From Desulfobacteraceae bacterium (lineage in GTDB: Bacteria > Desulfobacterota > Desulfobacteria > Desulfobacterales > Desulfococcaceae), in NCBI GenBank assembly GCA_011390755.1, contig JAABRU010000007.1:14534-78533 (forward strand): a DNA stretch of 64,000 bases, read 5' to 3'. The first letter of the stretch is position 1; each line of letters begins with the position of its first letter. A program made the translations under genes and the position numbers. Below are positions 13,591 to 49,749 of this stretch, one piece after another. Below the pieces are notes generated by a model, which was not told where the DNA came from, ran no database searches, and worked only from the letters and a program-made list of their open reading frames with translations.

Positions 13591-13600
13591 TTGAAGGAGT

Positions 13601-17990: not shown

Positions 17991-18216
17991 CGTCCGCTGA
18001 ATAACACCGGCTTTCGGTCTTATTACAAAACCTTATCCAATGTCCGCGATTATACCCTTTCCGGGGCTCAGTGACACGGCCTGCATTCCCGCTCCGTCCG
18101 GCTTACTTCGGCAGGCTCAGTAACCATCGGACTCCCGTTACCGGGTTTACCTCCGGACGCTGCTGCTGATCTGCCGGTTATACTTTCATCAGGCGGGACT
18201 TTCACCCGCCGGGTAA

Positions 18217-18381: not shown

Positions 18382-18467
18382 AATAATAAATTTCAGGGCC
18401 TTCGCCCCTTCCCACCATTCCGGATTTATCCTGACGCAAGGAGTGCCGGGTTAGCCAACATTTTGAA

Positions 18468-24618: not shown

Positions 24619-27600
24619 TTACAAAGGAATCGCATTTTCCCTCACCGACACCCCTGTATCCGCATCCCCCTTATCCGTGGTCATTTCGGCTTCCAGGTGG
24701 GCCACAATCCGCTGGTATTTTTTGTTTTTTGGTTCCAGATCCAGGGCATTTTTAAAATCGCACAGCGCGCGGGTCATTTCATTTTTGTTGTACCAGGCCA
24801 GTCCCCGTTTGTAGTAGGTTTTATGGTCTTTGGGATTGGCTTTGAGGGTGACATCGTATTTTTCAATATCCTGCCAGCCCCCCTCCTGTTTTGCATTCAT
24901 GATTTCCCGATAGACAGACTGGAGGTTCCGGATTTCCTCATAGAGTTTTTTGATGACGGCCGACTGCTGGCGGCTGCTTTTGAACATGGGGTCAAGCCAC
25001 GCGTTCATGATGTTCATCTGCCCTGTGATCACCTCCAGGAATCCATCCGGCATACGGCTGACCACTTCCATTTTGGGGGGGAGCAGGGGACCGCTTTCCT
25101 CTTTGGATGCTGCGGAGAGGACGGATTGTAAGGTCTGCATGAGTTTTTCCATCTGTTGCATAGTTTCCTCAGCAAAGCTCACTTTGGTCATCCCGACTTG
25201 TTTCCCTGCCTGTTTCAATGACGCATCCAGCACGCCCCGGATACCCTCCAGTCCGTCGTAAAATGCGGATAACTGCCCGACGACCTGGACAATGGGGTCG
25301 CTGTCATCCATGCCGCGCAGCATCTGATTTTTCCGGAAGGTTTTTTTGATATCCTCCCAGCGTTGGGCTTCGTCTGCGCTCAGCCAGCCCGTGAGTTCCT
25401 TGAATTTGAGCAGATTGGCTTCGGCCCCGGTGGTCAGGGTCTGGGCATCCTGTTCATATTGGGACAGGATCAGGGTTTTCAGTTCCTCCGCGTTCATGAT
25501 GGGCATGATTTTTTCCGCTATGCGGTTCATGTTGCGGTAGGACCCCTGGAGTTTGAAGGCCGGTTCCGTTCGGTATTCGTCGGCCTGGGCTGCGGAATGG
25601 ATATACTGCAGGTTCATTTTGAGGATGATTTCCCGCACGGTAATCATTTTTTCCATTACGGAAACCATTTCGCTGACTTCCTCCGCGGAGAGATTGCCCT
25701 CAAATTCCACCCCCTCCCGGCTGCCGCTTTCCGCAATGCGGATAATTCCGTACACATCCTGCTGACTGCGGCTGGAAAGGCGGTTGAGTACGGCATTGGA
25801 GGTGAGGGAGTTTTCCAGGTAACTCATTTTGAATACATCCCCGGTATCTCCGATAATGTCGCCCAGGTTGTAGGTATCGGCGCGGTTGGCCAGCATGTCC
25901 GGGATTCTGAATTTTTCCCCGCTTTCGGTAAAGGGGTTTCCGGCCATGCAGACCACCACTTTTTTGCCCCGCAGGTCATAGGTGCGGCTTTTGCCTTTAT
26001 ACACACCTTCGATTTTGCGCTGCGCGTCGCAGAGGGAGATGAATTTCTGCAATAATTCCGGGTTGCAGTGCTGAATGTCATCCAGGTAGATCATGACATT
26101 GTCGCCCATTTCCAGGGCCAGATTGAGTTTCAGCACTTCCTCCCGCGCGCTGGCATTGGGGGCCTCGGCCGGGTCCAAAGACGTTACCAGATGACCGATG
26201 GCCGGGCCGTTGATTTTCATGAAGATAATGCCCAGCCGGTTGGCGATATACTCCATCAAAGTGGTTTTGCCGTAACCGGGCGGGGAGATGAGCAGGAGCA
26301 GGCCCATCAGGTCCGTGCGCTTTCCCTCGCCTGCCGTGCCGATCTGCTTGGCCAGATTGTCGCCGATAAGCGGCAGATAGACCTGGTTGATGAGTTTGTT
26401 TCGCACAAAGGAAGAAAGAATCCGGGGCCGGAATTCTTCCAGGCGCAGGTCTTCCCGCATCCGGTCCGTAAGTGTTTTTTTCAGTTCTCCGTAGCGCAGG
26501 AAAAGGGGCAGGGTTTCTTTTTCATATTTGCGGAGTTTTTCCATAAAGCGGATATAGTTCAGCAGGTATTTCCCTTCCTGAAGCAGGGGATGGTCGCCCA
26601 CCAGACCGGAAATCTCTGTAACAACGGAAACCTCAATCACATCCCGTTTCTGCCCGCTGCGGCTGAAGATGAGCACCGCTGCTTCGTCCGTGTAATCCGC
26701 AAGTTCCGGACGGTTCAGCGTGGCGATATAGGCCATTACCCAGTCCCGCACCAGTTCATATTCCCCGGCAGGGACAGTGGAAAGTTTTTCCCTGGCCTCT
26801 TTGAAACGTTCTCCGAAACGGGATGTTTTCAACTGGCGGATCAGTCCCTCCGCGATTTCCCAGGCTTCCCGGCTGATGACAAAGCATTCCTCCCCGCTGA
26901 TCCGGTCGGGCCGTATGAGTTCCTCAAAGAGATAGCGCGCGGATTCCGCAACAGCATCACCGGGGAAAAGCCCTGTTTCCCCGCAGAAGTCGCATAGGAG
27001 GCGATCCAGTTCCGCAATATAGCGATCCTGTTTTTCCTCTCCGGGAAAAAGCTCGTGCATCAGCCCGAATCCGGCCAGTTTGTCGGCCAGTATCTGTTTT
27101 TTCTCTGCAGGTCCTTCCCCCTGAAAATAAATCTGCCAGAAGAGCCGGGCCAGCGCGCGGGAACGGGGATGAAAACGCAGCAGTCCGGCTGCCGTATGGA
27201 TATGCAGGATTTCCCGGAAAATTTTGGCACCGTCATGGTCGTGAATGCCTTTGGAATAGCCTTCACTGTAACGGTGTCCCATGAATTTCTGCACATAGTC
27301 CTTTATTTCCTTATCGGAATAATTCTGAATCTGTTGAACTTCTTCCGCATTCTTTCCTTCCACTTCCTTCAGCATCTGGAAAGCCAGGTATTCGCCCCGG
27401 TAAACCTGCCGGTTTTCCGAAGGCACTTCCATATCCCAGACGGAATCTGTCTGAAGGAACTCCGCATCTTCCAGGGCTTCAAAAAAATTGGTGCCGGTAA
27501 GGTGAAACATCTGCTTCCCGTCCCGCAGGATCACGGTCAGATCCAAAGGCTGCACATTGACAGTGAACTGATGCTTTCCGAAGCGGATGATATTCTGCCC

Positions 27601-30162
27601 GTCCGCAAAAAGTTCCTTACGGTCTTTGAGTTGCCGCACGGTATCTTCCCGGATGGTCTTGAGCCGGGACTGGATGTCATCGGCCTTGACCGTATCATCC
27701 AAAGCCAGGAGCTGCTCCACAATATCCCGGATTTTGGAAATCATGAGATCCGAGGCAAAATACGCGTTAATGGCAGAAATTTCTTCCATTCCGGCCACCC
27801 GGCTGCGGATGCCTTTGAGAATTCGTTCGGCCGCGCTCATAAGCGCGGTGGCCCTTTTGTTGCGGGCTTCGGTCAGGCTCAGTTTGCGGGATTCAAAGGC
27901 ATTGTAAATCTCATCCCGTTTCTCCGAAAGTTCCACAATAAACTCGTCAAAATCCGCAAACCGCCCTTCCAGTTCCTCCACCCCCACCATGAGTTTTGTC
28001 AGGTATTCATCGCATTTGTCCGGGGTGTCGCAAAGGTCGAGATAATTGACCACGCTCTGGTTGAGCAGTTTGACCTGTGCCCTGAACTGGGCCACACCTT
28101 CGGTGCTTTGCAGGCTTTTCTTTTTGTTCTTCAGATTGGCCCGCACCTGGTTGAGTTGGGAATAAATATCGGAGATACTGTCAATAATGCGCGTGGTCTG
28201 GGTGGAATCCTCAATATGAAGATTGCTTACAATTTCAATGAGCATCTCCAGTTCATCCGAGGCCCCGCCCACCTCCGTCTCCAGTTCCTGTGCCTCAGTC
28301 ACTTTGCTCAGGGAATCAATCCTGGCCCCGGCTTCCGCTACCCGCTTCTCATAGGGAATGAGGGATTCGGCTTGTAAGAGGAATTCCACGCAGAGGGAGG
28401 AAACCCGGTCGGCATTTTCCGCCACTTCCGCGTCCAGGCCTTCCACCGTGTCCGTATCCACATAACGGAGGTCTTTGAGGGAAATAATCTCCCCCCGAAC
28501 GGTACGCAGCCCGGCCAGCCCTTTGACAAATCCGTCAATATGGTCAAGAGATTCGGGGCTGAGATTATCCAGAATCTCCTTTGTCCGGGCCTTTACCCGT
28601 GCGACTTCCTCGTCTGTATTTTTTTTCAGGCGCACAACCTTTTCAAATTCCTCAATGGCTCCGGCCGCGGCATCTTTGATCTGCAGCACGGTTTCCTTCA
28701 GGTGGAAGGCTTCGGGCTTGTCCAGCCAGAAATAGGCATCGGCAATGCCCGCGGCTTTCTTCATCAGGTCCACATAAAGGGTGGCGTAAAGTTCTTCCCG
28801 GTGCATGAGTTTGAGCATTTCATTGCATTCGGCCATGCAGCGCACAATATTGGGATTGCCCACCTTGTAAAGAAAGGCATCGCTTTTTTCGGAAAACGCG
28901 TATTCCGGGCCCACAAAAGGGGTCTGCCAGATGCGGATGGCGTGATGTTTCACCGGTTCCTCCGCGGCACGGAAAAAGATCATCTCCCCGTTTTCAAAAT
29001 GGGAATAACCGTTGCAGGGAATGGGGTTTTCCACCTTCTGCTCAATGAGGTTATAGGAAAGAAGCACATAATCCCCGCTTTCCATATTATAGAAAATATA
29101 GAGAAAATCCTCTCCGTTGGGGGCCACCATGCGGTGTTCAAAGCGCATGTCTTTCACGCCCAGGTCAAAGCGTTTCAGTTCCCCGCTCTGCAGATAGTAT
29201 CCGTTGGCAAACATCAGGCCCTGGTCATCGGGCAGCAGCACACAGGCATGTTCAATCTCATCCACCCGCACCACGCTTTCGGTTTTTCCGTTAAAAATAT
29301 AATAGCGGAAAAGATTTTCCATATAAGGTTTTATTTTCACCAGAATCAGATGCCCCAGCACCGCATAGCGGATTTCCGCATCATCCAAAGTCTGGTCCGG
29401 ATTATCCACCGGTTCCGCATAAATCCCCTGCCCGCTTTCGGTATTGTCTTCCACCTTAAAGGTGATATCCCCGCCCACAGCCTCCACAAATACCCGGTCT
29501 TCCAGAGAAATATGGGGATGCTTTCCGGTGCGGTGCATCTCCCGTGTGCAGCGTTTCCATTCAAATTCATGCTGGGGCGGATGTTTCACCTCATGATCGC
29601 TGCGGTTGTCCAGATAAGTAAGGCCCCCCTCTTCCATCAGCCATTTGAATGCCTTGATGTCCCTTTCGGCCTTTCCCACCCGGAAAATCATATAAAGATG
29701 CGGGCCGGTAACGGTGAATTTGGCAAACTGCGCCTGCTTATAGTATTTATAGAGGTTTTTCAGATCCGTCTCAAACTGCCCCGAATTCAGCACTGCCCAG
29801 TCCAGCTTGCGGAAACTGTGCTCCTCATAGGCATACACGGAAAAAACATCGGAAAGATCAATCTCGGATTTCAGCCCCAGATGGACATTATAACCGAAGA
29901 TGAACTGCTTTCCGTTAACAGGAACCATATCCCGCGGGATGCAGTTATGCTGCGTGCTGATCCGTTCCGTGGCCAGCAGGGTCTGCTCAATGGCCCCGAA
30001 TATTTCTTTACGGGAGGTGTTGAGCTGATCCAGTCGGGAGCGGAGCTCCTTACCATGCGTAAGCAGGCGGTTGCGGATGATTTCATAGGTTCCGCCTTCC
30101 AGTACGGTTTCATCGCTTTTGACTTCATTGGTATTTTCAGGGGACGGGGACTGCTGAGACAT
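24619..30162 (-). CDS. giant AAA+ ATPase (1847 aa) with beta-rich N-terminal region, long helical/coiled-coil region and C-terminal TPR
   Basis: Start at ATG 30162 has an AAAGGAGG RBS. Walker A LLLISPPGYGKTTL is at ~26263-26290, and Walker B VMIYLDDIQH at ~26068-26095. This is a MoxR/dynein-like AAA core around aa 1300-1480. The C-terminus YYKRGLAWYNKNEMTRALCDFKNALDLEPKN is a TPR. The antisense ORFs listed in the track are spurious. Confidence 0.9.
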   Translation of the reverse strand: MSQQSPSPENTNEVKSDETVLEGGTYEIIRNRLLTHGKELRSRLDQLNTSRKEIFGAIEQTLLATERISTQHNCIPRDMVPVNGKQFIFGYNVHLGLKSEIDLSDVFSVYAYEEHSFRKLDWAVLNSGQFETDLKNLYKYYKQAQFAKFTVTGPHLYMIFRVGKAERDIKAFKWLMEEGGLTYLDNRSDHEVKHPPQHEFEWKRCTREMHRTGKHPHISLEDRVFVEAVGGDITFKVEDNTESGQGIYAEPVDNPDQTLDDAEIRYAVLGHLILVKIKPYMENLFRYYIFNGKTESVVRVDEIEHACVLLPDDQGLMFANGYYLQSGELKRFDLGVKDMRFEHRMVAPNGEDFLYIFYNMESGDYVLLSYNLIEQKVENPIPCNGYSHFENGEMIFFRAAEEPVKHHAIRIWQTPFVGPEYAFSEKSDAFLYKVGNPNIVRCMAECNEMLKLMHREELYATLYVDLMKKAAGIADAYFWLDKPEAFHLKETVLQIKDAAAGAIEEFEKVVRLKKNTDEEVARVKARTKEILDNLSPESLDHIDGFVKGLAGLRTVRGEIISLKDLRYVDTDTVEGLDAEVAENADRVSSLCVEFLLQAESLIPYEKRVAEAGARIDSLSKVTEAQELETEVGGASDELEMLIEIVSNLHIEDSTQTTRIIDSISDIYSQLNQVRANLKNKKKSLQSTEGVAQFRAQVKLLNQSVVNYLDLCDTPDKCDEYLTKLMVGVEELEGRFADFDEFIVELSEKRDEIYNAFESRKLSLTEARNKRATALMSAAERILKGIRSRVAGMEEISAINAYFASDLMISKIRDIVEQLLALDDTVKADDIQSRLKTIREDTVRQLKDRKELFADGQNIIRFGKHQFTVNVQPLDLTVILRDGKQMFHLTGTNFFEALEDAEFLQTDSVWDMEVPSENRQVYRGEYLAFQMLKEVEGKNAEEVQQIQNYSDKEIKDYVQKFMGHRYSEGYSKGIHDHDGAKIFREILHIHTAAGLLRFHPRSRALARLFWQIYFQGEGPAEKKQILADKLAGFGLMHELFPGEEKQDRYIAELDRLLCDFCGETGLFPGDAVAESARYLFEELIRPDRISGEECFVISREAWEIAEGLIRQLKTSRFGERFKEAREKLSTVPAGEYELVRDWVMAYIATLNRPELADYTDEAAVLIFSRSGQKRDVIEVSVVTEISGLVGDHPLLQEGKYLLNYIRFMEKLRKYEKETLPLFLRYGELKKTLTDRMREDLRLEEFRPRILSSFVRNKLINQVYLPLIGDNLAKQIGTAGEGKRTDLMGLLLLISPPGYGKTTLMEYIANRLGIIFMKINGPAIGHLVTSLDPAEAPNASAREEVLKLNLALEMGDNVMIYLDDIQHCNPELLQKFISLCDAQRKIEGVYKGKSRTYDLRGKKVVVCMAGNPFTESGEKFRIPDMLANRADTYNLGDIIGDTGDVFKMSYLENSLTSNAVLNRLSSRSQQDVYGIIRIAESGSREGVEFEGNLSAEEVSEMVSVMEKMITVREIILKMNLQYIHSAAQADEYRTEPAFKLQGSYRNMNRIAEKIMPIMNAEELKTLILSQYEQDAQTLTTGAEANLLKFKELTGWLSADEAQRWEDIKKTFRKNQMLRGMDDSDPIVQVVGQLSAFYDGLEGIRGVLDASLKQAGKQVGMTKVSFAEETMQQMEKLMQTLQSVLSAASKEESGPLLPPKMEVVSRMPDGFLEVITGQMNIMNAWLDPMFKSSRQQSAVIKKLYEEIRNLQSVYREIMNAKQEGGWQDIEKYDVTLKANPKDHKTYYKRGLAWYNKNEMTRALCDFKNALDLEPKNKKYQRIVAHLEAEMTTDKGDADTGVSVRENAIPL

Positions 30163-30309
30163 GAAAAGCCTCCTTTGATGTTTGCGGTGTTTTTTCCGGA
30201 ATGCAATAATCCACACTGTCCCCGTTTTCTTACAAATCCCCTCCCTTGAGGGAGGGGCAGGGGGAGGGTGATGGGATGAAAGAGAAAGTTTGCATCAGAA
30301 CAGCGATCT

Positions 30310-30376
30310 GAAAAAACACTTTACAGACTCGAAAGAAAAATTTCAAGAAGTTCGGAGGATATTTATGTTTAGGGGA
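30310..30376. repeat. cassette-boundary repeat, copy a
   Basis: AACACTTTACAGACTCGAAAGAAAAATTTCAAGAAGTTCGGAGGATATTTATGTTTAGGGGA. Related copies are at 31114-31170 and 31815-31862. Confidence 0.75.
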
Positions 30377-30690
30377 GAAAGTACCTCATTGGTATTTCGC
30401 TGCAATCTTTTTCTCACCCAGGCGGGATTCCGGCGGCAGTCCGTGACTGCGTAAATCCGTATTTCATTTTCTTCCATACGGTAATAAATGGCAAAGGGGA
30501 ATTTTTTTGAAAGAAAACGGTAATATTTACCGAAATGAATACTGTGAATTCCGGCAGACAGTTTCAGGGATTCGATATCCGCGGAGATTGTTTCCAGAAA
30601 ATGTTTTCCCACCCCTTTTTCCTGAAATTCGTAAAAAGAAAATCCCTCTTTCAAATCCTCTTTGGCGGATTCAAGTATTCTGATTTTCAC
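30343..30690 (-). CDS. parE: type II toxin, RelE/ParE family
   Basis: VKIRILESAKEDLKEGFSFYEFQEKGVGKHFLETISADIESL...FPFAIYYRMEENEIRIYAVTDCRRNP. The GTG start overlaps the antitoxin stop (GTGA). Confidence 0.8.
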   Translation of the reverse strand: MKIRILESAKEDLKEGFSFYEFQEKGVGKHFLETISADIESLKLSAGIHSIHFGKYYRFLSKKFPFAIYYRMEENEIRIYAVTDCRRNPAWVRKRLQRNTNEVLSPLNINILRTS

Positions 30691-30893
30691 GAAACAGAAT
30701 CCCATATATCTTTTTTGGCCTGTTCCCAGTCAACAAACCTGTCTCTGCCTTCTCTTACGTTCTTCTCTCTTTCTTTTAAAATATCCCCATGCCAGCCCGG
30801 AGATGATAAATCCGGTACATTCCGGCAGATATCATCCCACAGCAGTTCCATAGTTTTCAGTTTCTCTCCTGTAGTCATTTCTTTTATATTCAT
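30687..30893 (-). CDS. putative addiction-module antitoxin component
   Basis: MNIKEMTTGEKLKTMELLWDDICRNVPDLSSPGWHGDILKEREKNVREGRDRFVDWEQAKKDI is a typical short antitoxin of ParE-like toxins. Confidence 0.7.
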   Translation of the reverse strand: MNIKEMTTGEKLKTMELLWDDICRNVPDLSSPGWHGDILKEREKNVREGRDRFVDWEQAKKDIWDSVS

Positions 30894-30970
30894 ATTCTTT
30901 TCCTTGATTTTTATTCAGAAAAAATAAACGTTTATACAGAATGTTATCTGCTGCACATGAAAGAGCGGAA

Positions 30971-31072
30971 GGATTTATCCTCTTTGCCCGTCCACCCGGA
31001 GGATTCGCTCCGGACAGGCAGGGATTTGTCCTCTTTGCCCATCCACCCGGAGGATTCGCTCCGGACAGGCAG
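30971..31072. repeat. 51-bp tandem duplication (2 units)
   Basis: GGATTTRTCCTCTTTGCCCRTCCACCCGGAGGATTCGCTCCGGACAGGCAG x2. Each unit contains the hairpin CCGGA-GGATTCGC-TCCGG. Confidence 0.9.
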
Positions 31073-31113
31073 AGTTTTTGATTATTTCTGCCATACCATC
31101 AGGAGAAAGTCAA

Positions 31114-31170
31114 TTGCAGACCTGGGAGAAAAATTTCAGGAAGTTCGGGGGATATTTATGTTTATGGGGA
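31114..31170. repeat. cassette-boundary repeat, copy b
   Basis: TTGCAGACCTGGGAGAAAAATTTCAGGAAGTTCGGGGGATATTTATGTTTATGGGGA. Confidence 0.7.
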
Positions 31171-31175
31171 AGAAT

Positions 31176-31391
31176 TCAGGCCGCAACCGGTACCAGGCGG
31201 TATATTTTTGCCAATCCGGCAGCCGCACTGATATTACCTGTACGGAGCGCATTTCGCACATCATCCAGTTTCAGGGCATCTTCAGGTCCCAAACAGGGGG
31301 ACCAGCCCTTTTCATAATAAATGAGGTCAACCTCGACTTCGGCAGCATACTGCCCTTCATGAATATATTTGACATGACGTTTCCGTTTCAT
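31176..31391 (-). CDS. small protein, putative antitoxin partner of the DUF4258 protein
   Basis: 71 aa; 4-nt overlap (ATGA) with the upstream DUF4258 gene; [49 protein letters not shown]... Confidence 0.5.
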
Positions 31392-31711
31392 CGTTTCCTC
31401 CTCATGAAATCATCCGACCATTTTCCCGGATCAGGTCTGTAGGCCGTAACCAGTACAGCAGGAGAGGATAAATTCCGTGGAATCCCCCAGAGGATATGAA
31501 CCGGATGATTTTCCGAATCCCGCTGCAATACAAGCACACATGGTCCTTTGTGATAATCAGGATATTCTTCCAGAACCAGCGCATTACCGGCACCTTCCAA
31601 CATATCCCGGACAGATAAATTATCTGCAGCCATTTCATCATAACCGTGTTCCGAAATATTCACTTCCAGACGTGCAATCAGTTTCTTTATGTTTTCAAAT
31701 ATCCGGCTCAT
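31388..31711 (-). CDS. DUF4258 domain protein (putative toxin)
   Basis: ...[61 protein letters not shown]...[13 protein letters not shown] is a DUF4258-like pattern. Confidence 0.65.
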
Positions 31712-31814
31712 TCCGGTAAACCTGTCTCCACTTTCGCTTCTTTATCCTGATTTTTCTCAGACCGAACCGTCAGATACAATCAGCATAATTATTTTACTTC
31801 AAAACAGCAACCTG

Positions 31815-31862
31815 AAGAAACACTTTACAGACTCGAAAGAAAAATTTCAAGAAATTCGGAGC
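31815..31862. repeat. cassette-boundary repeat, copy c
   Basis: GAAGAAACACTTTACAGACTCGAAAGAAAAATTTCAAGAAATTCGGAG. Confidence 0.7.
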
Positions 31863-31877
31863 GGAGTGTGGGAATAA

Positions 31878-32458
31878 TTGACTTTCAGACATTATGCAGA
31901 TATGAATCACACAGAAGATATATTTGAGAAATCCGTAAACAATCCCCATAATGCGGCCTTTCATGCGGCTTTTCAGAAAAAAGAGGTAACGAGTGCCATG
32001 TCATGCTGCACCTGTTCAAACATATGTCCGATGAGGATATGTACGGGCATCTGCTGCGGATAATGAAAATCATTTCGGAAATCTCAGAGCGGAAAACCAT
32101 GCTGGAAATCCTGGAACCGGCACTCCGATATACATACCACGCCAGGAATGAGGATGAGAAAACAGTCAGAAAATACATTGAGGAAGGAATTGAATATTTT
32201 GATGATATCAAAGCAGGGGAGGTGGCCATGACGGTTGCGGATAGACTGGAAAAAAAAGGAGAAATCAGAGGAAGGTCTGTTCTGATACAAAAACAGCTTA
32301 ACAAAAAATTTGGCCTTATTTCATCTGTGCTTGAACGGAAACTGCAGGATTCCCGTTTGGATATTCTGGATAAATTCGGGGAAAGTATTTTTGATTTCAA
32401 CAATCTGAAGGATGCGGAAAAATGGTGGGATGATTTTGAGAAGAAGGGGAATGCGTGA
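31878..32458 (+). pseudogene. Rpn/YhgA-like recombination-promoting nuclease remnant (internal deletion)
   Basis: N-terminal signature ...SVNNPHNAAFHAAFQKKEVT jumps, in another frame, to the C-terminal helical region (...MTVADRLEKKGEIRGRS...LNKKFG...). The PD-(D/E)xK core is missing. A second copy of the N-terminal motif lies at ~37020-37075. Confidence 0.5.
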
Positions 32459-32490
32459 GGAGGCAGAGTCACGGAAAATATTTTATGGGA

Positions 32491-33026
32491 TTAGATATCA
32501 AACCTTTTTTTGAAAAATTCATCAATCATTTCGGATAAAATATTGTCCGTCCCGTTTTTCTGACAGTTGGATAATTTATTCATTATATTATCATATTCCT
32601 GAACAAATGTTTCAGGATTGTCAGGTATCTCATTTATAATTTCTGCGAGTTCAGGATTAAACCGGGCATAATCACACAAAGATTTAATCATCTGAATTCT
32701 GTCTTTCAGTTCTTCCGGGCTGATCTGATTGAATTTCATAATCTGTTCCTTTCTGTATTCTTTTTCTGATTCGGCAGGTGTGAATTCCATATGCGGATAT
32801 TTTTCCGTAAATCCGTGTTGCTGTCGTTCAGGGATGCCTGATGGGTGGTATGATGCTTGAGTTGCAACAGTTCGGCAGGTGCGCCATTCTGCTGAAAATC
32901 AATATCATCAAGACCTTCTATCCTGATTTCTGTATCTTCGGTTTTATTTAAAATGAGATACAGGGCATAGATGGCTTGGTAGAGGTAGCCGAGGGCTTGG
33001 GATGAGGCGGAGAATTGGGAGTTCAA
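32491..33026 (-). pseudogene. DUF4297/Cap4-type PD-(D/E)xK nuclease N-terminal fragment, frameshifted
   Basis: MNSQFSASSQALGYLYQAIYALYLIL...EIRIEGLDDIDF...LLQLKHH shows the GYxYQ...E..D...QxK pattern. The frame breaks after ...KNIRIW near 32790 and continues as a 99-aa ORF. Confidence 0.45.
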
Positions 33027-34327
33027 TTTTTATCATCTCCTTTTGTTCATGTCCAACTGCTGAATCGGGATTCCGTAATTGTTCACGAATATCTCTTGTT
33101 TCCGAAAAGCAGGGAATGATGTTCAGTTCACTTGCCAGCCTTTTCACTTACAACATTTTCCCTCATTATTTCTTCCACATCTTTCCATCTTCTTTTATAT
33201 CCGGTTTCTTCAATCAGTTTTCGGGCTGCGTCCAGATGCTTTTCTGCCTGCCTGGCTTTACCTTCCGCAAAGCATAGACGACAGGCTTCCAGGTGGTAAT
33301 CGGTGAGGTAGAGTTTCATTCCGCCGTATTCTGCGATTTCACAGGCTTCATTCAGATCAGTTCGGGCTTTATCAAAATTTCCACTGATCCTGTTCAATTC
33401 AGCTCTGGCAAAAAGACCGATGGGCAAATCTTCCTGATATCCGGATTTCCGTTGTAAAACAATTGCAGTTTCAAGATGTTCTGATATTTTTGAAAAATCG
33501 GATACATCTGATTGGATATTTTTATGCAATAATGCACGTCCCATTGAAACATGAGACAAAGCCAATCCTGCCAGACTATAGAATAATTCAGGAGAGTTTG
33601 CATATAATTTTAAAGACCATTCGGTTCGGATAATAATATCTTCATATAAACCGAAATCCATCAGCAAATCACATATCCTGTATCCGGGGCCGGAGTATAA
33701 AAAAGTGCGTTCAGGGTTCTGCTTTTTCAGATCGGATTCTAACTGTAAAAAATATTTTTTTGCTTCAGACCTGTATCCGAAAGCATGAAGAATAGCTGCC
33801 AATGCTGAACTGGCAGTTCCTATCCAAAACCAGTCTTTCGTTTTTTGAGCGTATTCCAGACTGTTACGGGCATAATTATCAGCGGTTATCAAATCTGCAA
33901 GCAATAAATGGAGAATGCTTAAGTTGGTAGCCGCCTGCGTCATTTCTGCCCAATTTTCCTGCTTTGTATATTCTTTTAAAGAAAGATCAAGCAGTATTTT
34001 CCCTTCTTGCAATCGCCCTGTTGCACGGAGACAGTAACCGGAACGGTTCATAACAAATATTTTCTTTTCATCCGGAAGTTCTGCAACAGGAACACTCCAA
34101 ATATCAGAAAAAAAATGGGATAATGCTGTCAAATCTGCACCAAAGGCTCCAAGTCTGTAAATTGAATACCCCTGCTCTTTTCTTCTGATCCTCTCCCAAT
34201 AAACATAATCCAAAGCCTCTTCATATTGACCCGCCATGCACCCGTGCCTCACAGCCATATACAAAGGCTCCATTTCTTCCAAAGTATCCGGCAGTTCTTT
34301 TTCCGGCAGTTTTTTGAAATAACCATA

Positions 34328-34521
34328 CTGAACTTGTGCAGGCAAAATCTTATGATTGAACAAAAAATACAATATTATCATGCTGTTGAATCTTTAAAAG
34401 TTTCCAAATTTACAAATCTTTAACATATCCAAAATTAATCATTTGGATAAATATAGACATAATATATTATTGTTTCAGGTAGTTAAAATGATTAAACCGC
34501 AAAATAGCTGCGCAAGTTCAG
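34328..34521. mobile_element. MITE-Y, copy 2 (inside the STAND gene)
   Basis: TIRs CTGAACTTGTGCAGG / CTGCGCAAGTTCAG. Perfect 7-bp TSD AACCATA at 34321-34327 and 34522-34528. Confidence 0.9.
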
Positions 34522-35653
34522 AACCATACAATCGGGAGTGGGCTTTTTTCCATGCTTCGTTTTGTTCCCTTTTCAGTTTTTCACTGAAATGTTCCCGGAT
34601 CAGCGGATGGCAGTCCAATGAGTTTTTTTCACAGGCATCTTCTTGTAAAATCAGTCGCAGTTCCCTTAAATCTCTGAGCGCATAGCCCCAATCCGCATCG
34701 GAAATTCCCTGCAAATCTTCTGTCAGTCCTTCAATGACCGGTTCTGCCAGTACGGCTTTTATTGCATCTTTATCGGCGGGACGGTCAAAGAGTCCCATAA
34801 TCCGCAGAATTGCCAACTGTCTTTGCCCTTTTTTGCTTTCTTTCAGCCATTTTTCATAGGATTCCATTACCCGTCGGGCATGTTTTCCGTGATAATCATC
34901 TTCATAGGCCAGTCTTTCAATCTTGTCCCGCTTTCGGATATCTCCCCTGTAAACATTTTTCAGATATGTTCCCAGCAGGGTAAGGGCCAGTGCATGACCG
35001 TCAAATTCTTTTACTGCTGTAAGCAATTCCTTTTTCGGACCGCTTACACCCAGATGCACCAGCAGTTTCATTCCGGCTTCTTCCGACAGATGTTCCAGAA
35101 CCTGCTCTTTGACAGAGGAACGGATATAGGTTTTCAGATCATCCACTTTCAGACGGGTGGTGATTACGCACAGTCCCGGATTCTGAACAGCCAGATTCCG
35201 AAGCAGGGTACGCAGACCCTCATCTTTGACTTTTCCTTCCTGCGGTCCGGGCGGATGCTGTACCGGTTCCAGGCCGTCCAGCACAATCAGACTTTTCTGC
35301 TTCTTTATCAAATCTGCCAGTCTGCGCCCTTTTTCTGTAGGAAATCCTTCATCCGGATTGGGATCGCCAAAACATTTCAGAGCGTCCGCCAGAAAGCGGT
35401 CTGCGGAGGCCTGTCTGCCCTCTGCTGCTCCCTGACTGTAAAAAGACCAGGCATAGACCATCTCTGCGTCCCGAAAATTTTCTTTTGCCATATGATTGTG
35501 CAGCCAGGCATTCACCAGCGAAGTTTTACCCACACCGCCCAATGCAATAAAGACAAGGATTCCGGTTTCCGGATTTTCCCAAGCTTCATCCAAAAGAGAC
35601 AGTTCTTCCTCCCTGCCAAAGAGGTCAGGGGAAGTTACGGGCATAGAATCAAG

Positions 35654-35863
35654 CTGAACTTGTGCAGGCAAAATCTTATGATTGAACAAAAAACACAATA
35701 TTATCAAACTGTTAAATCTTAAAAAGATTCCTAATCTACAAATTTTTAACATACTGAAATTACAGCATGTCAAAAAATAATTATTTGGGAAAATATTGAC
35801 ATAATATATTATTATTTTAAGCGTTTAAAATGATAGAACCGCAAAACAGCTGCACAAGTTCAG
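35654..35863. mobile_element. MITE-Y, copy 3 (inside the STAND gene)
   Basis: TIRs CTGAACTTGTGCAGG / CTGCACAAGTTCAG. Perfect 7-bp TSD AATCAAG at 35647-35653 and 35864-35870. Confidence 0.9.
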
Positions 35864-37231
35864 AATCAAGGTTTATCCGGGGGATGGAAATACAGTCGGT
35901 CGGGGAAGTATCGGATGCGGATATATGGGGATCATCGGCAGTATCGGAATCCTCCGTCTTTTCGGTCTTTGGGGAAGTCGGACCCGCTTTTCTCTGCCTC
36001 AGCCCTTTTACCACAATCTGAACGGAAAGATGGGAAGACGAATCCGGTTTGACAATTTCCAGGTGATTGCCCGGAATGGTTTCCCTTGCCTTCTGGGGAA
36101 AAGGAAGATGGCAGGACTGTTCACTGACAAAATCATCATTCATGCCGCGCACAGCCCTGAAATGGAAACGTCCGTTATAGTCAACTTTTTCATCCCACTG
36201 ACGGCGAAGGTTGATAATGAACTCTCCCCGGTCTGCCATATCCCGGACCTGGGATTTGCGGAAAATCCCTGCACCGAATGCAGCTTTCATCAGACCTCCG
36301 CTGGGCGTACCGAACATGAAGAGATGGCTGACTTTTTCAAAAACTACCGGATCATCCATAAGTGCCCGCTGCACAACCAGTCCTCCCATGCTGTGGGCAA
36401 TAAAAGCAAGATTATCATAACGGTCAAAAGGAGAATACGCAATACGGGTACGAAGACTGTCGGCAAGGGAACGGATGGAGGGATAGGCAAACCAGACCCG
36501 TTTGGATTCCAAAGCAAAAAGACTGGTGGGATATCCGATGCTGAAAATATCCCAGTCCTGAATATCCGGGTGCTGCTTCAGAAATTCGGGAAAATCCCCC
36601 CAGGTTTTGCATATATCTCCGGCAAAACCGTGAATAAATACGACTGCCGAATTTTGCCCCTTATCCTTGTAAGAATAGAAATCCGCTTTCATGAAAACCT
36701 TTCAGAATTATGATGCAAGATGTAGACTTTAAGAAAATAGTTTTGGGGGTGTCCAAAATTTTAAATGTTATAAATTCAGGATATTAAAAATTAAGCTACC
36801 CCAAAACTATTATCTTAAACACTATATGAATGACATAACACACAGACGGATGGCAAATCAAGCAGTCTGTTTTGGAATTTTTGGAAAAATCTGTCCGATA
36901 TAAAAACCTCCCGATTCTGCTGAACGGAAACATTTTCAAAATAATGGACAGCGCACATCGCTCCCGAATTTTTTTGACTTCCGGATACAATTCTGGCATC
37001 ATGCTGATATGAAAAAACCGAAAACATATCTGAAAAATCCGTAAACAATCCTCATAATGCGGTTTTTCAGTCGGTTATGACACCTGCGGAGCAGATCAGA
37101 CAGAAAGTTCTGCCTTACGGCAGAATCAGGGCAGGCGGTGTTATTGTATACGCCCTTCCGCCAATCGCCGGGGACGGATGCAGCAGGCCCATACAGGAGT
37201 GGCATAAACCGTCAGTTTAACTTTGACAGAG

Positions 37232-42227: not shown

Positions 42228-44198
42228 TTATTTTTCCATAATTCCGAATACGATGGTTTCTTCCTTCAGATTATCCGGTTCTTCCAGTCCTTTTTCCAGA
42301 AAAGGGTTTCCTTCCATAATGGCAATATAGGAATAACTGTCAAAAACAGCCACCCGTCCCTTTATGATGTCGGATTCTTTCCATGAAAAACCCCTGTAAA
42401 CCGAACGCAGTCTCTGAAAATACGGATGCGTCCTTTTCCTGCGGGAATTACTTTTCAGACTGCCCCTTTCCCCGCGGGAATTACTTTTCAGACTGCCCCT
42501 TTCCCCGCGGGAACTTCTTTTCAGACTGCCCCTTTTTCCGGCAGGGACAGGGCCTGCGGAATACATCATCCTCCCCTGTCTGTTATAAATTAACAGCTTT
42601 CGGATATCCGCTCCCAGACCGTTGAGCACCGAAGGTTCCGAACCGAATCTCATTTCCAGTCTTTCTCTTCTTTTTTCATATTTCCGTAACTGAAAATGGG
42701 CGGGAACACGGGCCGTGATCCATCCGCTTTCCAAATGCTGATCCCGGGTCCAGTCCAGTGTCCGCGGATTTCCCTCTCCGTATAAATTGGAAACAACAGG
42801 ACTTACTTCGGTCTGCCGGGAAAAATGCAGACCCCTGCCGGGGGTCATGCGGCAGTAGTATCCGGCCAGCCCCAGCGTCACGGCTTCATGTTTTGACTGA
42901 TCCAGTATGGTAAAGGCCGAGATACGCACATCCGAATCCAGACCTTCGGAAAAAACAGCGTAAAGAAAAACAGCCGTGCAGGTAAAAAGAGAAATGGCCG
43001 GGATGGTCCATATCAGCAGGATTTTTTTCTTTTTCAGTGACAGGACAAAGAAATTCAAAGGCCCGACAATGATGACAAAAAGAAACATGCCCAGAAAAAA
43101 ACCGCGAATATTTATCTCCGCATCCCCTGAAACCGGCAGGGCAAGATTGGCGGAAGCCGGTGTGTCAAATTTATACCAGGGCTGCTGCACCTGTTTCCAT
43201 ATCCGGTAAAGTGCGTTCATCTGCACTGTATCCAACTCTGCTGCGGAAGTAAGCGGAAAAACAGTGCACTGTCCGAATCCGGCATAATACACATGCTTAT
43301 TTCCGTCTTTTTCCCCATAGATATCGGTAAATTTGTAATCTCCTAAAATACTGAGACTGCCTCCGCATTTGACATAGGCCAGCAGGGCGGATGCGGAAGC
43401 CGGGGACAGGGCATCCATATCCGCGGCCGTCATGATAATGCCGTCATAGGGGCTGTAGCTCATCCAGTTTTCCGGCCAGAAAGCCGGGGGGGACTGGGCG
43501 CGGATCAGGGAAATATAATTTTCTGTATCAGATGCGGAAGATTTGGATTTTGTTTTCTTCTTCAGTTCATCTGTTTTTTCCAGGCTGCGGAGCAGATCAT
43601 CCCGGTTCAGCGAAGGACTGACCAGAAGACAGATTTTTCTTTTTCCGTAGGGCATATGGGGGGTATGGGGCAAAGGAAGCGAAGGGAGCTGCCGGGCACC
43701 GTCTATGGAAATATAGGCTGTATCGGCCCATAAACGCAGGGGCGGCAGCATGACGGAAAAATGAATCTCCGCGCTGGGGGAAATGCTTACATGCCGCCGC
43801 ATTTCCCGGATAACACTGTTCCGGGCCGGTTTGTTTTTTCCTGCAAACAGAATTTCCACTTCATAGGAACGTAGCGGGGAATGATTCTTCAGATAAATGC
43901 GGTAATCATAATAACCGTGAAAACTTTCTCCTTCTGTCCGGGCCTGAATATTCACATCGATATCCCCGAAAGAAGTCAGGGCAAAGCTGTTTTTGCAGCA
44001 GAAAAGAGAAAGCAGCATCAGAAGTATGACCTCCGGTATTTGAAAGCGGAACCCCGGAACCGGATTCTCTGGTTTTGAAACCCGGTACCCGAAATTTGAA
44101 CCCGCTCCTCCGGCCCCCCGGTTTTCGGGTCTGCAGTTTGAGACCGGGAAAATATCATCCCCGGGCAGCAGCACCTGCCCGATTTTATCTTTTCTCAT
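42228..44198 (-). CDS. large membrane protein downstream of MoxR (DUF4350-like region, tentative), 656 aa
   Basis: ATGA overlap with the MoxR stop. N-terminal TM, central YVKCGGSLSILGD (GATase1-like fold motif seen in DUF4350/DUF4159 proteins), and TM pair LGMFLFVIIVGPLNFFVL / LLIWTIPAISLFTCTAVFLYAV. Confidence 0.7.
   Translation of the reverse strand: MRKDKIGQVLLPGDDIFPVSNCRPENRGAGGAGSNFGYRVSKPENPVPGFRFQIPEVILLMLLSLFCCKNSFALTSFGDIDVNIQARTEGESFHGYYDYRIYLKNHSPLRSYEVEILFAGKNKPARNSVIREMRRHVSISPSAEIHFSVMLPPLRLWADTAYISIDGARQLPSLPLPHTPHMPYGKRKICLLVSPSLNRDDLLRSLEKTDELKKKTKSKSSASDTENYISLIRAQSPPAFWPENWMSYSPYDGIIMTAADMDALSPASASALLAYVKCGGSLSILGDYKFTDIYGEKDGNKHVYYAGFGQCTVFPLTSAAELDTVQMNALYRIWKQVQQPWYKFDTPASANLALPVSGDAEINIRGFFLGMFLFVIIVGPLNFFVLSLKKKKILLIWTIPAISLFTCTAVFLYAVFSEGLDSDVRISAFTILDQSKHEAVTLGLAGYYCRMTPGRGLHFSRQTEVSPVVSNLYGEGNPRTLDWTRDQHLESGWITARVPAHFQLRKYEKRRERLEMRFGSEPSVLNGLGADIRKLLIYNRQGRMMYSAGPVPAGKRGSLKRSSRGERGSLKSNSRGERGSLKSNSRRKRTHPYFQRLRSVYRGFSWKESDIIKGRVAVFDSYSYIAIMEGNPFLEKGLEEPDNLKEETIVFGIMEK
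42441..42539. repeat. 33-bp in-frame tandem repeat x3 within the 656-aa gene
   Basis: GCGGGAATTACTTTTCAGACTGCCCCTTTCCCC x3 (third unit diverged) encodes GKRGSLKRSSR-GERGSLKSNSR-GERGSLKSNSR. Confidence 0.9.
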
Positions 44199-45310
44199 TG
44201 CACTTCCACATTCCCCGGCAGTCTCATGCCGGTTTCATCCATTGAGGAAAGCAGTTCTCCCAGCACGGCATGGGCATCAATTTTGTCCATACGGGCTTTG
44301 TATCCCAAAATAATACGGTGATGCAGGGCATGAACCGCAACTGTTTTCACATCTTCAAAGCCCGCGGTCGGACGGCCGCAGATCAGGGCATAGGCCCTGG
44401 CGCTTTCGGCAATTGCAATGGCCGCCCGCGCCGAGGCTCCGAATGAAACATAATTACGGATCATCTCTGTGGCTTCCGGGGAAGCGGGATGGGTGCCGCT
44501 GACCAGCCGGGAGATATAACGGGCCACGGGAAGCGGCAGAAACATTTCATCCATGACAGCAAAAAGATATTCCAGATCTTCGGAAGATACTCTTCTTTCC
44601 GGTTCCGGCGGATTTCCCCTCCGTCTTTCTGTGATGATTTTTTCCAGTGTTTCCGGTTTCGGTGTTTCCACTGTCAGTTTAAAAAGAAAGCGATCCACCT
44701 GGGCTTCGGGCAGGGGATAGGTTCCTTCCAGCTCAATGGGATTCTGGGTGGCCAGCACAAAAAAAGGCGAGGGAAGCTGACGGCTGTTTCCCAGCAGAGT
44801 GACAGCCTGCTCCTGCATGGCTTCCAGCAGTGCGGACTGGGTTTTGGGGGAAGCCCGGTTGATTTCATCGGCCAGCAGAATATTAGTAAAAACAGGGCCT
44901 TTCTGAAAAACCAGTTTTCTCCGGCCCTCTTCATCTGTCTGCAGGATATGATTCCCCAGAATATCTCCCGGCATGAGATCGGGTGTAAACTGCACTCTTT
45001 TATAGTCCAGTCCCAGCAGTTTGGAAAGACTGCGGACCATCAGCGTTTTTCCCACCCCCGGCACACCTTCCAGAAGCACATGACCCCGACTGAGCAAAGC
45101 CGTGAGGATCATGCGGTGCGTATTTTCATTTCCCAGGATAATCCGGTCGGTCTCTTCCAAAAGCGCGGATATAATTCCCCCGGCCTGTTCCATCTCCTGC
45201 GGTGTCAGGAGTTGCTTTTTCTGCTGCATAATCAGGGCTCCGATGATTCCTTTTCCGAGTTCAGTTTTTTGGTAAATATCTTTCATTAAAATAGCGGTTT
45301 CCAGGCTCAT
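44195..45310 (-). CDS. MoxR-family AAA+ ATPase
   Basis: HVLLEGVPGVGKT (Walker A), ILLADEINRASPKTQSALLEAMQE (Walker B/sensor), and the VLATQNP motif. Start is taken at ATG 45310 (alternative 45286). The further track extension lies in repeat DNA. Confidence 0.9.
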   Translation of the reverse strand: MSLETAILMKDIYQKTELGKGIIGALIMQQKKQLLTPQEMEQAGGIISALLEETDRIILGNENTHRMILTALLSRGHVLLEGVPGVGKTLMVRSLSKLLGLDYKRVQFTPDLMPGDILGNHILQTDEEGRRKLVFQKGPVFTNILLADEINRASPKTQSALLEAMQEQAVTLLGNSRQLPSPFFVLATQNPIELEGTYPLPEAQVDRFLFKLTVETPKPETLEKIITERRRGNPPEPERRVSSEDLEYLFAVMDEMFLPLPVARYISRLVSGTHPASPEATEMIRNYVSFGASARAAIAIAESARAYALICGRPTAGFEDVKTVAVHALHHRIILGYKARMDKIDAHAVLGELLSSMDETGMRLPGNVEVQ

Positions 45311-45577
45311 CAGGGAAAAACCGCCAGTTTGGAAATCTGCCAAACTTTCAGTTTGGCACTCCTCCGCAGTCTTTCTGAGTGTACAGAAATATATTTGACA
45401 GCCCGCCATAGTCCTTTGCAGGTGAACTGATACCCGTTATGGGTTTTGAAATTCTCAAATTCAGACTGTTGTGCTAAAATTCCGGTATCAGTTCATCTGC
45501 ATATATCTATAAGATTGAAGCAGATAATGCTATGGTTTTTTGTTCCTCCGGACATTGCAAAGATTCCGCCGCCGTAA

Positions 45578-49397: not shown

Positions 49398-49749
49398 TCT
49401 GTCCCGTCCTTTTTCTCCGGAAAAATATTTCCGGCATTCGGAATATTCATCGGTGGCAGACCCGCCCCGGTCATCCGGATAATTCCGTCTCCCTCCTGAA
49501 AAAATGCACAGTCCCTTTTGCAACAGTTCGGTAAAAAAATCGGCATGAATAATTTCAGTAAGTTATAAGACTCATACAAACAATCTGGATTTAATGATTT
49601 CAGATACTTATATTTTTATGCTCTGCAAATCAGAAAAAATTACCGAACCATTGTTTTGCTATATTCATCCAAATTCTGCCCTTCCGTCAGGAAAATGTGT
49701 TTTGAGTCATAAATTGCTCACTGCGAACCCATAAAAACAGGGCAATGAA

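Follow-up and report, generated by a model that had tools for sequence, protein, structure and literature searches.

Two MITE insertions divide a 1048-codon NLR-like gene into three open reading frames in a filamentous sulfate reducer

A 1048-codon gene in a member of the filamentous Desulfonema/Desulfococcaceae group is cut in three by two MITEs, as is seen directly from the uninterrupted allele of a conspecific strain. The interrupted gene occupies positions 33128-36692 of the 64-kb stretch of DNA analysed here as a whole (the window), where it reads as three minus-strand ORFs of 291 aa, 432 aa (from the first TTG) and 417 aa. It is very probable that members of one MITE family inserted here twice, independently and recently, and thereby knocked out an NLR-like conflict protein. 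The three ORFs that are left are probably pseudogene fragments in a decaying island from which a Lamassu system also appears to have been lost.

Fragment 1 (35817-36692, minus strand, 291 aa) consists of an alpha/beta-hydrolase effector and a low-complexity linker; its native codons 1-277 end at 35862, and its last 14 codons, ELVQLFCGSIILNA and the stop, belong to MITE copy 1. Fragment 2 (34475-35773, minus strand) holds the STAND NTPase module in native codons 278-651 (34522-35653) and measures 432 aa from the TTG or 425 aa from the ATG at 35752, with 33-40 N-terminal codons taken from copy 1 and 15 C-terminal codons from copy 2. Fragment 3 (33128-34381, minus strand, 417 aa) is the TPR sensor arm, native codons 652-1048 at 33128-34320, preceded by 18 codons of copy 2. 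Copy 1 is inserted after codon 277, at the boundary of effector and NTPase, and copy 2 after codon 651, at the boundary of NTPase and TPR, and a stop codon is reached within 14-15 codons of each insertion. Excising each MITE together with one target duplication (TSD) leaves 3565-217-201 = 3147 nt, a single 1048-codon ORF with no internal stop. The repaired junctions read ...PRINLDS|MPVTSPDLFGREEEL... and ...AHSRLYG|YFKKLPEKE..., and the motifs AHSMGG, GGVGKTS, LIVLDGLE, VITTR and GHALAL are all found in the reconstruction. Every detail of the original prediction on these points, from the three ORFs, the MITE coordinates and the TSDs to the arithmetic, junctions and motifs, was verified. The insertion of copy 1 adds 217 bases (3n+1) and that of copy 2 adds 201 bases.

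Copy 1 (35654-35863, minus strand; 210 bp, 26% GC) is flanked by the perfect TSD AATCAAG at 35864-35870 and 35647-35653, and copy 2 (34328-34521, minus strand; 194 bp), which has a 16-bp internal deletion, by the perfect TSD AACCATA at 34321-34327 and 34522-34528. The two copies share the same orientation relative to the gene, and both inserts open with the 14-bp terminal inverted repeat CTGAACTTGTGCAG and close with its reverse complement (14/14 matches in copy 1 and 13/14 in copy 2). A scan of the window for this 14-mer with up to two mismatches gave six occurrences against 0.26 expected, a number reached in 0 of 100 shuffles, and the extra pair of repeats defines copy 3 (8748-8957, plus strand, 210 bp), with the TSD AACCAAA at 8741-8747 and 8958-8964. 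Copy 3 interrupts the right terminal repeat of another small element, which belongs to a second family, and excision of the copy restores that repeat so that it matches an uninterrupted paralogue at 18226-18373. The deletion aside, copy 2 shares 97.9% identity with copy 3 and 86% with copy 1. All three copies (194-210 bp, 26-27% GC) contain stops in all frames, match the terminal repeat at 13-14 of its 14 positions and have perfect 7-bp TSDs (3/3 sites), and the single-strand fold of the MITE scores z = -5.2. Filled and empty sites are both at hand, the conspecific strain providing two orthologous empty sites and the uninterrupted paralogue a third, for copy 3, and the element behaves as a non-autonomous cut-and-paste transposon.

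Copy 1 has no match in Rfam, and the 64-kb window holds neither an autonomous parent IS with matching ends nor any further match to the terminal repeat. IS982 was considered as the parent and ruled out by its AC ends, those of the MITE reading CTGAAC... Searches for other copies found no exact match in GTDB genomes, JGI metagenomes or IMG/VR, and blastn found none in plasmids; judging from these sequence searches, the 7-bp-TSD family appears to have no counterpart in the collections searched. Insertional inactivation by prokaryotic MITEs is documented for MITEAba12 in Acinetobacter hns, for the Anabaena mcy cluster and for avrA/hopX1 in plant pathogens (PMC10969869). The family described here shares with such elements its small non-coding body, terminal inverted repeats, fixed-length TSDs, multiple copies, disruption of coding sequence and polymorphism among strains. 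It differs in its 7-bp TSD, its CTGAAC... ends, its absence from the searched collections and the lack of a parent IS, as well as in the double hit on one gene, by copies that belong to two sub-lineages and both sit at domain boundaries.

The search for an intact single-ORF orthologue, suggested with the original prediction, was rewarded on contig L011 (run SRR28370020) from a conspecific strain, whose gene is 96% identical to that of the window at the nucleotide level. Identity to the window is 96.8-97.3% in the housekeeping contigs L006 and L007, and L007 comes from the same run as L011, which together support conspecificity. The L011 protein, P0423, is an uninterrupted chain of 1048 aa that is identical to the reconstruction at 995 of 1046 positions (95%) with no gaps and at the junction residues of both sites, and the three fragments cluster with it at 90% identity or more. 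L011 carries each target heptamer once and neither of the gene MITEs, so both junctions are empty in the related strain. BLAST aligns it to the window gene in three blocks overlapping by 9 nt at the site of copy 1 (the 7-nt TSD plus two chance matches) and by exactly 7 nt at that of copy 2. The proposal that one gene of 1048 codons had been split by two MITEs, with its frame restored on excision, is thus confirmed by a natural allele. Against positions 1-205 of L011, the window has about 100 additional bases of 5' leader or promoter (36714-36827, minus strand); these include an imperfect hairpin (36737-36810) whose arms occur nowhere else in the window.

The fragments occur in the protein collection as separate proteins of 291 aa, 425 aa (starting at ATG 35752) and 417 aa, and the sole contig of the 291-aa entry is an 88,354-bp NCBI contig. 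That the three ORFs are so recorded on this contig would suit a natural three-gene operon with repeat-containing spacers, or else a chimeric assembly artefact. Both the 1048-aa orthologue and P0001, a homologue of 1080 aa with 61% identity, are single ORFs, and all aligned homologues are continuous over both junctions; a consistent arrangement as three genes with the same boundaries was not seen. The perfect TSDs and two sequence-distinct MITE copies (86% identical) mean that mis-assembly cannot be the source, and copy 3 adds its paralogous empty site. Operon or artefact is thus extremely improbable and effectively refuted.

More than 1000 relatives share the core of the protein, with heads of the TIR, SEFIR, caspase or kinase type. 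The hydrolase head is rare in the clade, and coverage over the full length including this head was found only in P0001 and P0423. In 36 intact homologues (alignment A2), neither junction shows a gap or insertion, the link from NTPase to TPR is unbroken, and junction 2 falls between the invariant Y650 and the nearly invariant Y652. No homologue naturally split at either boundary was found. Among the best 150 representatives of a search in 1.84 billion proteins (3,718 hits, E <= 0.001), no TPR-only protein starts at junction 2; the starting points of the short TPR proteins in that search are scattered, and these proteins are remnants or artefacts of contig edges. Effector-less NTPase-TPR homologues do exist, such as P0013, a protein of 780 aa whose start lies some 7 residues upstream of junction 1. 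Together with stand-alone hydrolase genes, they indicate that separation of effector and NTPase is not intrinsically non-functional.

This bears on the idea that the MITEs have converted one protein into three separately expressed and co-operating ones, with stops, outward promoters and restart codons provided by the element. As a productive split would require, the two insertion points coincide with module boundaries and the copies agree in orientation and codon phase; agreement in orientation and phase alone is expected by chance about once in six. All three MITEs share one orientation relative to the downstream ORF, copy 3 with respect to a kinase-like gene at 9108, and close to where copy 1 ends on its downstream side there are weak sigma-70-like matches (TTGATA-18-AATCAT). 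Promoters are documented in other prokaryotic MITEs (review PMC10969869), some related systems encode the hydrolase effector in a gene of its own, and none of the three fragments bears a further lesion. However, no Shine-Dalgarno-like sequence precedes any in-frame restart codon, although several bona fide genes of the window have one, and the promoter-like matches are not enriched over shuffles (13 against 7.9 +/- 3.0 expected in this AT-rich region; not significant). Fragments 2 and 3 would begin with 18-40 hydrophobic residues encoded by the MITE, and the last 14-15 residues of fragments 1 and 2 are junk. The unbroken NTPase-TPR link in the intact homologues, the lack of a TPR-only protein starting at junction 2 and the deletion of the adjacent Lamassu, a sign of island decay in this strain, also speak against such a conversion. 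Given the stops in all MITE frames, the restarts without a ribosome-binding site and the want of any naturally split homologue, this part of the original prediction was not supported, and we consider a fission into working proteins very unlikely. Fragment 1 does retain its native start, an upstream AAAGG and the intact catalytic triad.

The knock-out appears to be recent: the 3147 nt are free of any further stop or frameshift, comparison with the intact allele gives a dN/dS of 0.26 (dS 0.096), the catalytic and NTPase motifs are intact, and of 222 conserved columns the reconstruction deviates at 18, a share within the 0.5-9.4% seen in intact homologues. With the loss of Lamassu, these observations favour the earlier description of an immune gene inactivated very recently. 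A third reading is that the MITEs silence a gene which is costly or autoimmune, and that occasional precise excision restores it, giving phase variation at the population level; against this counts the rarity with which DDE-type elements excise precisely. Excision with one TSD copy would indeed give exactly the wild-type sequence as in L011, filled and empty alleles both occur within the species, and the fragments are otherwise free of lesions. Nevertheless, two independent insertions would both have to excise precisely, and neither the window nor the searched collections offer a source of transposase. The 3.9% nucleotide difference between the filled and empty alleles indicates separate lineages rather than switching variants of one clone. 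A reversible switch is therefore very improbable indeed. It is likewise very unlikely that the MITEs are anything more than wreckage, whether by reversibly silencing a costly suicide gene of NLR-like type or as an agent of domain fission freeing effector, switch and sensor from each other. If fission were true, it would offer a route from single-chain STAND receptors to multi-gene effector/iSTAND/TPR-S systems using the same hydrolase domain.

The gene so interrupted by transposition has the parts of a STAND receptor. Walker A (GGVGKTS), Walker B (LIVLDGLE), the sensor-1 Arg (ITTR) and the GxP-like motif GHALAL follow in order and are intact, and across 37 sequences G316, K317, D400 and R441 show no or almost no variation. 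The structural model has pLDDT 70-97 over residues 280-1040 and above 90 in the TPR arm, which is matched in Pfam by TPR_MalT and TPR_12. Foldseek returned 6MFV (3.6e-12), Apaf-1 (1.5e-7), CED-4 (1.3e-5) and Avs3 (1.3e-5), as well as NRC3 and MalT domain III, and on this modelled fold the NTPase is predicted to be Apaf-1/CED-4-like (NBD-HD-WHD, then a repeat sensor). The Pfam thresholds for NACHT (PF05729; 21.0 against 26.7), AAA_16 (24.9 against 32.6) and nSTAND1 (19.1 against 27.1) were missed, and NB-ARC (PF00931) gave no match in the window protein; P0001 matches NB-ARC at 6.4e-5, and some homologues carry precomputed PF00931. The repaired protein matched no Avs or bNACHT model in PADLOC 2.0, its sole match being a weak one to LmuA-hydrolase in the N-terminal domain. 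In the assignment to NB-ARC and Avs, the Apaf-1/CED-4-like fold and the tripartite architecture stand, whereas the Pfam NB-ARC/NACHT thresholds and the PADLOC models do not support it, so that 'Avs/NLR-like' denotes an architecture and not a family.

The head is predicted to be an alpha/beta-hydrolase of the lipase/esterase type with a PlaB/lipase-like fold. Its catalytic triad S101/D186/H210 is intact and varies little or not at all across the family alignment (A3), H100, S101, M102, G103, G104 and D186 being invariant and H210 present in at least 90% of 22 sequences. With an AF2 model of this domain (pLDDT 80.8, about 90 over residues 1-235; pTM 0.79), a PDB fold search gave 848 matches at E <= 1e-3, with structures of lipases, esterases and phospholipases at the top, the best being the lipase/esterase 3e0x and the PlaB phospholipase 6zth/6zti. 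The window hydrolase scores below the Pfam cut-offs of Abhydrolase_6 (22.1 against 26.3) and PGAP1 (21.5 against 24.3); at E <= 0.001, its relatives match Abhydrolase_6 in 19/22 cases, PGAP1 in 11/22 and DUF676 (PF05057) in 6/22. DUF676 is the family used to annotate SesB-like lipase heads, and fungal NLRs with an N-terminal SesB-like lipase/esterase, an NB-ARC and TPRs are alike in their three-part lipase-headed architecture, the level at which the comparison is made, the present protein being bacterial. The Legionella phospholipase PlaB (6ZTH/6ZTI) shares the fold with the best query coverage of the fold matches (TMq 0.57-0.59), in spite of about 14% identity and a sequence match that is not significant (E = 0.2). 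The hydrolase type of LmuA (PADLOC PDLC03851) is likewise a serine hydrolase with GxSxG, Asp and His and is weakly matched by 7/22 members (best E = 1.9e-6), while the present domain is without an LmuB/LmuC partnership.

Eight of the 22 hydrolase relatives are fused to TPR-S (PF20308) and one has an effector-associated domain; elsewhere the hydrolase stands alone beside iSTAND or TPR-S genes. Alpha/beta-hydrolases are known as effectors in NTP-dependent conflict systems of multicellular prokaryotes (Kaur, Burroughs, Iyer, Aravind; eLife 2020 PMC7159879, 2021 PMC8195603). The kind of effector domain and the relatives fused to TPR-S or beside iSTAND genes agree with those systems, whereas here the effector is fused directly to a STAND-TPR chain with intact Walker A and B, and is not VMAP-, iSTAND- or GTPase-centred. 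Avs and bNACHT proteins, part of a STAND world in which a 2026 survey distinguished 589 clades (bioRxiv 10.64898/2026.01.04.697583), show the same order of effector, STAND NTPase and TPR-like sensor, swappable N-terminal effectors and the same fold, and a Lamassu neighbour is present in the intact strain. The protein differs from them in its lack of a PADLOC model match, its sub-threshold NACHT, AAA_16 and nSTAND1 scores and its rare hydrolase head, and its structurally closest STAND proteins are the archaeal STAND-TPR protein 6MFV, Apaf-1 and CED-4.

The architecture and the neighbourhood suggest an immune function for the family. In L011, a complete Lamassu lies directly downstream of the gene (LmuA 2.4e-71, LmuC 9.6e-18, LmuB 1.7e-140). 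The window retains an LmuA stub of the Cap4-nuclease type (32736-33026, minus strand; PADLOC LmuA E = 8.6e-20, Pfam Cap4_nuclease) of 88 codons covering residues ~5-89 only, and in place of the 3.4 kb that in L011 contain the remainder of LmuA together with LmuC and LmuB it has 316 bp (32459-32774). Of the toxin-antitoxin modules and nuclease remnants said to surround the gene, a ParE toxin gene was found nearby, and the nuclease remnant is this stub. The intact protein may work like other STAND immune sensors: binding of a ligand by the TPR arm would release NTP-dependent oligomerisation, which would bring the hydrolase domains together, and the activated hydrolase would then attack membrane lipid or another ester substrate, killing or arresting the infected cell.

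The locus is a well-proven yet ordinary case of recent gene inactivation by transposition and reveals no new kind of mechanism. It provides a clean natural before-and-after pair in one species, an intact gene with full Lamassu against a double-MITE copy with a Lamassu stub, and this pair shows how rapidly defence islands turn over in filamentous sulfate reducers. P0423 on L011 is a ready intact allele for an uncharacterised and widespread STAND clade whose members bear TIR, SEFIR, caspase, kinase and hydrolase heads.

Within 33128-36692 the minus strand encodes three ORFs one after another, 291, 432 (425 when counted from its first ATG) and 417 aa long, and between them lie two AT-rich inserts, termed here MITE copy 1 (210 bp, 35654-35863) and MITE copy 2 (194 bp, 34328-34521). 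Each insert is bounded by a perfect 7-bp direct repeat, AATCAAG for copy 1 and AACCATA for copy 2, as its target site duplication (TSD), and both start with CTGAACTTGTGCAG and end with its reverse complement. Removal of the two inserts together with one repeat copy each leaves 3147 nt, which read as one 1048-aa protein free of internal stops, with predicted junctions reading ...PRINLDS/MPVTS... (junction 1) and ...AHSRLYG/YFKK... (junction 2). The layout of the ORFs, the coordinates of inserts and repeats and the restoration of the frame were thus all as the original prediction had given them, and its main reading, that of one gene cut by two MITE insertions, is borne out by an intact orthologue and by empty sites.

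The check set beforehand was to find an orthologue encoded by one unbroken ORF, or else an empty site, and it succeeded with P0423, a 1048-aa protein encoded on contig L011 of a conspecific strain. The fragments of 291, 425 and 417 aa occur as separate proteins in the protein collection, all on one 88-kb NCBI contig, and an exact-sequence cluster look-up placed all three in a common 90% cluster with P0423 (SRR28370020). P0423 is identical to the reconstruction at 995 of 1046 residues, without gaps and with the same residues at both junctions. At the DNA level the match between L011 and the window falls into three blocks (L011 178-1023, 1015-2146 and 2140-3692), which abut with overlaps of 9 and 7 nt, so that each target heptamer occurs once and both MITEs are absent. 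This is proof that the inserts are insertions into one gene. As for the closeness of the strains, the PrkA protein of the window has an entry at 100% identity on the same 88-kb NCBI contig and 99% relatives labelled Desulfococcaceae, the nearest named genomes being Desulfonema species at 86-88%, and two housekeeping contigs from those PrkA relatives (L006, and L007 from the same run as L011) match the window at 96.8-97.3% DNA identity.

More distant proteins, too, run on without a break across the junctions. Protein search returned more than 1000 relatives of the repaired protein, including the 1080-aa P0001, 61% identical over 99% of the query and with the same hydrolase-NTPase-TPR layout, and an alignment with 36 intact homologues showed no gap or insertion at either junction. 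In this alignment junction 2 is flanked by Y650, which never varies, and Y652, which hardly does, both of an RLYxY motif, and junction 1 lies two residues ahead of the invariant P279, exactly at the border of the variable N-terminal effector and the conserved core. The TPR arm of P0001 itself (codons ~872-919 on its contig L001) carries an in-frame insertion of ~45 aa, and what encodes it is a ~78-bp element forming an almost perfect palindrome, ATTCCCCTCTTGAGAGGGG...CCCCTCTCAAGAGGGGAAT; this is a different small repeat in another organism, inserted in frame much as Rickettsia palindromic elements are.

The 14-mer terminal repeat of the MITE is found at six places in the window, where 0.26 would be expected, and its third pair delimits MITE copy 3 (210 bp, 8748-8957), flanked by AACCAAA. 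Leaving aside 16 bp deleted from copy 2, that copy matches copy 3 at 97.9% identity, and copy 1 is 86-87% identical to either; this near-identity beside a divergent copy 1 indicates that the gene was struck twice, by two sub-lineages of the family. Copy 3 is nested in an end repeat of another MITE-like family, ~150 bp long and with 24-bp terminal inverted repeats (TIRs, CCAATTTTGGTTTTTCCGGGCACA), found at 8606-8975, its right TIR split by copy 3, and intact at 18226-18373. Removing copy 3 with one AACCAAA restores a repeat end matching this uninterrupted paralogue. Empty sites are therefore observed for all three insertions, two orthologous and one paralogous. The targets follow the common pattern AAYCAWR, as drawn from three sites only, and the family ends are CTGAACTTGYGCAG...CTGCRCAAGTTCAG.

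All structural marks of a MITE are present in the family, namely size, no coding capacity, TIRs, a constant TSD, multiple copies and insertion polymorphism, and the family is undescribed and new. The window has no further TIR matches. Exact-pattern searches with one MITE end (34-mer and 22-mer) and with both TIRs plus spacer gave no match in GTDB genomes, JGI metagenomes or IMG/VR, nor did blastn match the MITE in PLSDB, and an autonomous parent IS was found neither in the window nor in any of these collections. IS982 was ruled out as parent because its ends start with AC; other IS families with duplications of 6-9 bp, such as the ISDol1 and IS1016 groups, are possible candidates. An Rfam scan of the locus returned no known RNA, intron or ribozyme within the inserts.

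Beyond the two MITEs the gene carries no lesion. Against the intact allele dN/dS is 0.26 at a dS of 0.096 (hydrolase 0.17, NTPase 0.26, TPR 0.40), and the repaired protein departs from consensus at 18 of 222 conserved columns, which is within the range of intact homologues, with no departure in catalytic motifs. Taken together, these mean that purifying selection acted on the gene during most of the time since the strains split, and that the insertions are recent. The original prediction had also offered that the MITEs turn one protein into three. Stand-alone hydrolases do exist, as a natural three-gene system would have it, but they belong to other systems (iSTAND, TPR-S), and TPR-only matches are truncations. 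When the TPR fragment was searched against 1.84 billion representatives, the best 150 of 3,718 matches were mostly long proteins with an NTPase upstream; the short ones start at scattered positions, from 39 residues upstream to 19 downstream of the junction, and of two inspected one was a contig-edge truncation and the other a remnant. Stop codons occur in every one of the three frames of either MITE, fragments 1 and 2 terminating 14-15 codons inside the element, no Shine-Dalgarno-like sequence precedes the restart codons, and promoter and terminator scans of the MITEs did not rise over background. The fission of one protein into three, or a reversible switch, is improbable and finds no positive support.

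In the repaired protein, residues 1-235 form an alpha/beta-hydrolase (model pLDDT about 90), in which HSMGG (the elbow) and D186 show no variation among 22 relatives and H210 almost none. The nearest folds are lipases, esterases and the Legionella phospholipase PlaB (TMq 0.57-0.59); family members match Abhydrolase_6, PGAP1 and DUF676, and weakly the hydrolase-type LmuA effector model. Elsewhere the domain is fused to TPR-S or encoded separately beside iSTAND or TPR-S genes, in agreement with the alpha/beta-hydrolase effectors described in conflict systems of multicellular prokaryotes (PMC7159879).

Residues 278-651 retain intact Walker A, Walker B, sensor-1 Arg and GHALAL motifs, and residues 652-1048 form a MalT-like TPR solenoid. 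A sequence-profile search of the PDB left the NTPase unclassified, with TPR and TIR matches only, and a fold search was needed; the good NTPase model is nearest to the archaeal STAND-TPR protein 6MFV, Apaf-1, CED-4, Avs3 and plant NRC. NCBIfam gave nothing useful for the protein, NACHT, AAA_16 and nSTAND1 all scored under their cut-offs, and PADLOC found no Avs or bNACHT match. Of the proposed Avs/NLR-like identity, NLR-like stands by architecture and fold, but assignment to a named antiviral family does not, by PADLOC and curated models. Relatives from Desulfobacterota, Aminicenantes, Verrucomicrobiota and Methanoperedens bear TIR, SEFIR, caspase, kinase and other heads on the conserved core, and such varied heads on one core are the hallmark of an effector-swapping conflict system. 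Within this uncharacterised STAND clade the hydrolase-headed member is rare and new.

Near the gene lie ParE, DUF4351 and a giant DUF3686/AAA ATPase (1865 aa, 24619-30216). In L011 a complete Lamassu directly follows the intact gene (LmuA 2.4e-71, LmuC 9.6e-18, LmuB 1.7e-140). Comparing window 32459-33026 with L011 3441-7106, the window keeps only LmuA residues ~5-89, an 88-codon Cap4-nuclease stub at 32736-33026; 316 bp of unrelated sequence take the place of the other 3.4 kb, and homology begins again from 32458. The surroundings of the gene are a defence island, complete in L011 and in decay in the strain of the window. The 5' leader/promoter of the STAND gene has ~100 extra bases relative to L011 (about 36714-36827), which hold an imperfect hairpin at 36737-36810 with arms ATAGTTTTGGGG and could be one more small insertion, a third, with an effect on the gene. 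DUF3686 sequence recurs beside STAND or hydrolase genes: the 72 nt just upstream of the intact gene (L011 1-72) are 93% identical to codons ~129-153 of the ATPase, and a DUF3686 fragment precedes a related stand-alone hydrolase gene on another contig (L002 885-1454). Beside the ParE toxin gene (30343-30705), a ~90-bp unit (TTACAGACTCGAAAGAAAAATTTCAAGAAGTTCGGAGG...) stands three times ahead of small ORFs (30289-31879), and may serve toxin-antitoxin-like modules as a reiterated leader or promoter cassette. At 42228-45409 a MoxR AAA ATPase with a weak match to bpMoxR precedes a 656-aa protein without Pfam match, the pair possibly being a MoxR-vWA-type ternary conflict system as in multicellular prokaryotes.

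Between genes at 49522-49653 lies a 132-bp segment whose inverted ends are imperfect and which contains GTTCGGTAA; it is single-copy in the window and absent from the 97%-identical L006, and looks like a strain-specific small insertion. Tandem arrays lie at 61371-61964 (54-bp period, ~11 units, inside ORF 60183-62153) and 13559-13859 (14/21-bp period), and several segments of 70-120 bp are duplicated ~2 kb apart (15609-16109 and 17413-18465, 88-97% identity), near a group II intron-type reverse transcriptase/maturase ORF (19516-20511). Many further short repeats are dispersed (families D3, D5, D8 and D12), which suggests a genome very rich in repeats.

Insertional inactivation by MITEs is well documented (PMC10969869), the mechanism here is of this ordinary kind, and effector-STAND-TPR proteins are already known. 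What is new is confined to an undescribed MITE family, a rare hydrolase-headed STAND member and a pair of intact and broken alleles.
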